From the sequence record NC_004928.1: a stretch of DNA of 64,000 bases; one strand, given 5' to 3'. This DNA comes from Escherichia phage RB69. The notes below the pieces were generated by a model. The model saw only the letters and a list, made by a program, of their open reading frames with translations, was not told where the DNA came from and did not search any database. Position numbers and translations under genes: made by a program. Of this stretch, positions 13,187 through 13,642 are shown piece by piece (position 1 is the first letter of the stretch; each line of letters opens with the position of its first letter).

Positions 13187-13642
13187 TTATTTTAGATCTT
13201 CGGCCCAATCTAGTTTTAAGGGTTCTTTGTATTCACGGTCGAGAATAACCGGAATAGCTACATCACCACTGAATGATAGTTGGCCAACGTTATATGATAA
13301 CGTTATATGTGGAGTGTAGTCGTCGAAATCATGAGTAGCACCTAAAGCTCGTGCGTACTGATGACGACATCTAAGATATTCGGAATCAAGAACTAAAACC
13401 AGTACAGCGCCGTCATCGGTTTTCCATACCTCAAGGTGTCCTGATTCGGCAACAGAATAACTACCACTAGATGTAGTATATGGTATGTTTACACGTGAAT
13501 AACAAATTGTTGAATGAAGCTTTTCACGTGGTACTGGATTAGGAATTCTTAATTTGCGCTGGAGGTCTTCCAGCGCATCAAGTGTTAATTCCGAAAATTT
13601 AGCTGCGACGTAGAGGCCTTGTGAAAAGTCCTCAAATTTCAT
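13187..13642 (-). CDS. acb1: 2H-phosphoesterase family protein, T4 57B / Acb1-like (anti-CBASS)
   Basis: Two H-x-T/S-x motifs ([15 protein letters not shown]); size 151 aa; position upstream of 57A and gene 1 as in T4. Confidence 0.75.

Follow-up and report, generated by a model that had tools for sequence, protein, structure and literature searches.

Gene content and coding evidence at the 57B locus

We analysed a 64,000-nucleotide stretch of the Escherichia phage RB69 record NC_004928.1 (hereafter, the window), a segment of a T4-like Mosigvirus coliphage (Straboviridae, Tevenvirinae). Using megablast against a phage collection, we found ~96–98% nucleotide identity to known phages, and every part of the window had a close public relative. 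The first 16 kb is ~96–97% identical to ChristianSchoenbein, ST2, PhAPEC2 and phiC120, while the region around acb1 is 94–99% identical to JK42, PTE-Eco05 and PhAPEC2. The remainder (16–64 kb) is the structural module; it aligns collinearly, as one or two pieces, with phiC120 and the O157 typing phages at 97.6–98.4% identity. Within it, the whole 163-aa homologue of the tail-tube gene 19 (39328–39819, plus strand) is overlapped on the opposite strand by a 203-aa ORF (39280–39891, minus strand), probably a chance ORF.

The features around acb1, in the direction of transcription, are as follows.

14603–14658, minus strand: 14-bp hairpin at the start of gene 1 (ΔG −19.7 kcal/mol, z −4.4)
13877–14611, minus strand: gene 1 (dNMP kinase), first in the 1–57A–acb1 unit (PF21448 DNMK, E = 8.8e-97)
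13642–13872, minus strand: gene 57A, tail-fibre assembly chaperone (PF17594 GP57, E = 2.4e-24)
13187–13642, minus strand: ORF assigned to acb1 as orthologue of T4 gene 57B (151 aa, ATG start, stop codon included)
13128–13178, minus strand: intergenic element before ip7, just 3′ of acb1 (TTTACA-17-TACTAT; 12-bp hairpin, ΔG −18.3, z −3.0)
12783–13109, minus strand: gene for an Ip7-family internal (injected) head protein of 108 aa (phrog_2667 'internal head protein', E = 8.3e-39)
12753–12803, minus strand: intergenic element before ipI (TTTACA-17-TATAGT; hairpin, ΔG −16.6, z −5.4)
12449–12736, minus strand: ipI, internal protein I (PF11634 IPI_T4, E = 1.5e-50; 88% identity to T4 IPI)
12400–12450, minus strand: intergenic element before trna.4 (12192–12398), from the repeat, promoter and fold scans

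Along the direction of transcription, the genes run 4, 2, 3, 1, 57A, acb1, the internal-protein genes, trna.4, trna.3 and trna.2, and the order from gene 4 to trna.4 is the same in T4, JK42 and PhAPEC2. Only two tRNA genes lie in the window (10783–10941, minus strand), one for Arg(tct) and one for Met(cat), whereas the T4 cluster numbers eight; at the corresponding site of the PhAPEC2 record, three tRNAs are annotated, on the other strand.

The GC content of the acb1 ORF is 40.6%, compared with 37.9% for the whole window. Nei–Gojobori estimates of dN/dS were 0.023 against JK42 and 0.057 against T4, where dS is saturated. Given these values (0.02–0.06), acb1 is a coding gene under strong purifying selection. 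Using tBLASTn, we identified homologues in 1,469 records of the phage collection, 82 of which are ≥99% identical, including a 100% identical protein in Escherichia phage vB_EcoM_WFL6982. Near-identical proteins occupy this context in other Mosigvirus phages, namely F2 and 348Ecol098PP (both 99.3%), JK42 (99%) and PhAPEC2. Thus, the gene is already known, with an identical protein in public phage genomes. What differs among these Mosigvirus records is the name, which ranges over hypothetical protein, RNA ligase, cyclic phosphodiesterase and 57B gene product. More widely, 57B/Acb1 orthologues are labelled 'hypothetical protein' in most GenBank records and 'RNA ligase' in RefSeq and phrog_755, and few public records call them phosphodiesterase or Acb1-like, a lag in annotation that is systematic.

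Family assignment and conserved residues

A 3′3′-cGAMP-degrading activity was previously purified from T4-infected cells, traced to gene 57B and named Acb1 (Hobbs et al. 2022, Nature 605:522, PMC9117128). In that work, crystal structures of the Erwinia phage FBB1 enzyme revealed a compact 2H phosphoesterase fold, in which the bases are stacked on by Y12, W74, F107 and W147, the adenine N6 is read by E141, and residues 145–152 form a lid. The tetrad H44, T46, H113 and T115 carries out metal-independent cleavage 3′ of adenosine via a cyclic phosphate intermediate (PMC9117128). The H44A/H113A mutant has no activity, and CBASS restricts T4 lacking acb1 (PMC9117128). The enzymes assayed in the papers cited here are those of T4 (86% identical to the window protein), FBB1 (64%) and Tequatrovirus phages of the BASEL collection.

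The sole Pfam match of the window protein is PF23474, 'Anti-CBASS protein Acb1' (198.1 bits, E = 7.4e-59, profile positions 1–144 of 144), against a gathering score of 27 bits. The best PDB match is FBB1 Acb1 (7T26, apo; 7T27, with 3′3′-cGAMP), with E = 3.5e-59 and 64% identity over ORF residues 9–148. The next, a distant Acb1 of 165 aa (9Q2G/9Q2Y), shares the family name and both alignable H-x-T motifs, although the match is weak (E = 0.002) and covers only residues 7–119. Acb1, Ip7 and IPI had no match in NCBIfam.

The original prediction had described a 151-aa product with two H-x-T/S-x motifs at the position of T4 57B, itself known as Acb1, an enzyme that degrades cyclic-oligonucleotide immune signals. 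Each part of this description holds. The ORF coordinates match exactly, and a regular-expression search of the translation for H-x-[TS]-x gave two motifs and no more: H43-S-T-I and H112-I-T-L. The ORF sits between 57A and the internal-protein genes, in synteny with T4, and the identity of T4 57B as Acb1 agrees with published work (PMC9117128). Alignment to T4 Acb1, the check proposed with the prediction, gave 86% identity over the full length (NP_049750), and H43/T45 and H112/T114 aligned with T4 H44/T46 and H113/T115, in the same columns as in FBB1. Numbering in the window protein runs one lower than in T4, which has an extra N-terminal Met; this Met and one residue in FBB1 are the sole indels of the alignment. 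All nine residues named in the structural work are identical to those of T4:

Catalytic tetrad: H43, T45, H112 and T114
Base-stacking residues: Y11, W73, F106 and W146
Adenine-specific residue: E140

None of the 21 substitutions that separate the window protein from T4 Acb1 falls at these positions. The C-terminal lid (approximately residues 144–151) reads LDWAEDLK, compared with LDWADDLK in T4. In FBB1 Acb1, the HxT motifs, the lid tryptophan and the adenine-reading glutamate are likewise aligned; this enzyme differs in having Phe and Tyr in place of the W73 and F106 of the T4 and window proteins (both aromatic), and in one single-residue indel in the β-hairpin that follows W73. Given the 64% identity, free of large gaps, to the crystallised FBB1 enzyme, the window protein probably has a compact 2H phosphoesterase fold. 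A single-sequence AlphaFold2 model of the 151-aa protein had a pLDDT of 40.9 and a pTM of 0.31, too low for comparing folds. Taken at the level of sequence, the ORF is almost certainly the Mosigvirus orthologue of T4 gene 57B, acb1.

The name 'RNA ligase' raises a different reading, in which the protein is a LigT/ThpR-type RNA 2′,3′-cyclic phosphodiesterase or a 2′–5′ RNA ligase with RNA ends as its substrate, perhaps in tRNA repair together with the phage RNA ligases. LigT-type RNA enzymes are indeed members of the 2H superfamily, and the reaction of Acb1 itself goes via a 2′,3′-cyclic phosphate. The label is attached to phrog_755 and, in RefSeq, to T4 57B and its orthologues, one record being called a putative RNA 2′,3′-cyclic phosphodiesterase. 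Against this, Pfam returned no LigT or 2′–5′ RNA ligase family at E ≤ 0.01 but Acb1 only, the NCBIfam scan matched nothing, and the closest solved structures are all Acb1. Moreover, conservation extends to the residues that hold the cyclic dinucleotide, the lid tryptophan and the glutamate that reads adenine among them, and the 86% identical T4 orthologue was isolated by its cGAMP-degrading activity, its deletion sensitising T4 to CBASS. We therefore consider an RNA-end enzyme very improbable and reject this identity; the name is an automatic carry-over from the 2H superfamily, without a LigT-type family match.

Still more improbable is that the window holds an inactive or decaying copy. Loss of acb1 does occur naturally, selected by Panoptes systems; Panoptes escapers carry an inactivated acb1, as does the BASEL phage Bas43, which has a nonsense mutation (PMC13577387). 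In the window, decay is contradicted by the intact length (151 aa, compared with 152 aa in T4), by the retention of both motifs and of every catalytic and binding residue, and by the dN/dS values given above, and the pseudogene reading was ruled out.

Transcription unit and the neighbouring internal-protein genes

The acb1 ATG (13642–13640) shares one base with the TAA stop codon of 57A, forming TAATG at 13640–13644. This overlap implies that acb1 is co-transcribed and translationally coupled with 57A. T4 57B likewise lies directly after 57A and overlaps its stop codon, and tBLASTn revealed that a tail-fibre chaperone gene typically adjoins acb1 homologues, including those of T4-like phages of Acinetobacter, Aeromonas and Vibrio.

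At the head of the unit, the hairpin at 14603–14658 buries the Shine–Dalgarno sequence and AUG of gene 1. Its 5′ arm holds the extended −10 sequence TGTTATAAT, which is preceded by a MotA-box-like CGCTTCT. In T4, the equivalent gene 1 hairpin differs by compensatory base changes, and the box reads TGCTTCA. By the T4 consensus rules, CGCTTCT and TGTTATAAT form a putative middle-type promoter, which would head the 1–57A–acb1 transcript. Transcripts starting there would lack the 5′ arm, leaving gene 1 translatable. The arrangement suggests promoter-dependent translational masking of read-through transcripts at gene 1, and such masking has been described for other T4 genes.

Downstream of acb1 lie two internal-protein genes. 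Although a Pfam scan of the ORF at 12783–13109 returned no match, its product is 96% identical to the JK42 'Ip7 protein', and ~66% identical variants are found in other phages. Its N terminus, MKTYQEFIAE/A, is a capsid-targeting sequence whose first 11 residues equal those of T4 IPII and IPIII; such sequences mark internal proteins (PMC12373910). IPI has a comparable N terminus with its protease site (MKTYKEF...LTE/A). The mechanically called ipI ORF starts at 12748, four codons (MEPK) before the MKTYKEF start used in T4, JK42 and PhAPEC2, and the true start is probably the MKTYKEF methionine at 12736. A further small protein (922–1218, minus strand), with a capsid-targeting-like N terminus (MKTY...) after five extra residues, is an 'internal head protein' of the RB69ORF127c type; its gene, between the homologues of lysozyme e and denV, forms a second internal-protein locus in the window.

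The Ip7 gene is present in JK42, FL18, AV109 and 348Ecol098PP, and absent from most of the closest Mosigvirus relatives and from PhAPEC2 and T4, in which 57B is followed directly by ipI. Because PhAPEC2 and T4 run from 57B to ipI, and because only ~89% of a 2.6-kb query was covered in most close relatives, we regard the Ip7 gene as a variable cassette, which the window has in addition to the T4 gene set between 57B and ipI.

A 51-nt intergenic element (repeat family D1) occurs in three copies, one before each of ip7, ipI and trna.4. Each comprises a predicted early-type promoter (TTTACA-17-TATAGT or TACTAT, TG-extended) overlapped by a hairpin of 10–12 bp (z −2.1 to −5.4). The element at 13128–13178 is conserved in T4 and JK42, with the T4 copy changed on both arms. 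Covariation across five intergenic copies was weak, with 2 of 10 pairs compensatory by RNAalifold, in a MAFFT register that differs from the individually predicted hairpins. In a generic terminator scan, no convincing intrinsic candidate emerged downstream of acb1, where the hairpin has no U-run, and an Rfam scan of the whole window returned two tRNAs only; thus, no known structured RNA lies near acb1. The 51-nt elements may form hairpins at transcript ends and may provide the homology through which cassettes are exchanged.

Of the 10 or more known Ip types, most of which have no known target, T4 Ip1, Ip2 and Ip3 act as inhibitors of GmrSD-type restriction enzymes, a different one in each case (PMC12373910). 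By analogy, the Ip7-family gene may plausibly act in counter-defence. A more specific reading, in which injected Ip7 inhibits one subtype of type IV restriction enzyme and the three promoter–hairpin copies are the recombination joints at which such cassettes move between phages, is possible, but we hold it only tentatively and regard it as doubtful. Any type IV enzyme countered by Ip7 would perhaps be one that attacks the arabinosyl-hydroxymethylcytosine DNA of Mosigvirus. Unlike T4, a Tequatrovirus, the window phage is a Mosigvirus, a group whose DNA has been reported to contain arabinosyl-hydroxymethylcytosine rather than glucosyl-hydroxymethylcytosine (PMC8594841). The GmrSD target of T4 IPI, to which the window IPI is so close, was characterised on DNA with the glucosyl modification.

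The original prediction had taken the adjacency of acb1 to two injected-protein genes as strengthening the view of 12.4–13.7 kb as a counter-defence locus. Here, one part stands and the other does not. The locus is fairly described as rich in counter-defence genes, but the adjacency adds no evidence on Acb1, because the gene order is inherited: acb1 and the internal-protein genes belong to separate units, and the pairing of 57B with 57A is kept in distant phages. A stronger version would make acb1, ip7 and ipI a functionally integrated island, co-regulated or acting together. All three are anti-defence genes or plausibly so (Acb1 against CBASS, IPI against GmrSD, and T4 Ip2 and Ip3 against other GmrSD variants), and the locus varies among close relatives, as accessory anti-defence regions often do. 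Integration nevertheless appears unlikely. Whereas acb1 overlaps 57A within the gene 1–57A unit, each internal-protein gene has its own promoter–hairpin element, a layout that contradicts a co-regulated three-gene operon, which we rejected. The proteins also differ in timing and delivery, since Acb1 is a cytoplasmic product of the infected cell, while internal proteins arrive by injection from the head into which they were packaged (PMC12373910). In addition, 57B remains beside 57A in distant T4-like phages; T4 and PhAPEC2 lack the Ip7 cassette with acb1 unchanged, and the presence of the cassette varies by phage among the Mosigvirus relatives; and the window has further internal-protein genes at another site, beside denV and e.

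Predicted role during infection

The arrangement described above would make acb1 the last cistron of the gene 1–57A–57B transcript, with its translation coupled to that of 57A and its pre-late expression driven by the putative middle-type promoter upstream of gene 1. Judging from the T4 and FBB1 enzymes (PMC9117128), the Acb1 so produced after infection would bind CBASS cyclic di- and trinucleotides having one or more adenosines, with 3′3′-cGAMP, cUA, cAAA and cAAG as likely substrates, and would strain the ring on binding. The adenosine 2′-OH and the two histidines would then bring about metal-independent acid–base cleavage of the 3′–5′ bond, passing via a 2′,3′-cyclic phosphate intermediate. 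As the linear products would be unable to switch on CBASS effectors such as Cap4, Cap5 and CapV, abortive infection would be averted. A shift in substrate range through the 21 substitutions relative to T4 is unlikely, since every contact residue is identical.

Type II Panoptes restricts Tevenvirinae that encode Acb1, sensing the loss of decoy cA3 (PMC13577387). Since the acb1 ORF is intact, we predict that the phage resists CBASS systems that signal with adenosine-containing nucleotides, and that it triggers guard systems of the Panoptes type.

Beyond correct annotation, the finding has little significance, and it opens no question that T4 does not already make testable. What the annotation does provide is a prediction: replacing the labels 'hypothetical protein' and 'RNA ligase', found in many records, by acb1 predicts both escape from CBASS and vulnerability to Panoptes. 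Such predictions would be of use in forecasting host range, for example in the choice of therapeutic phages.
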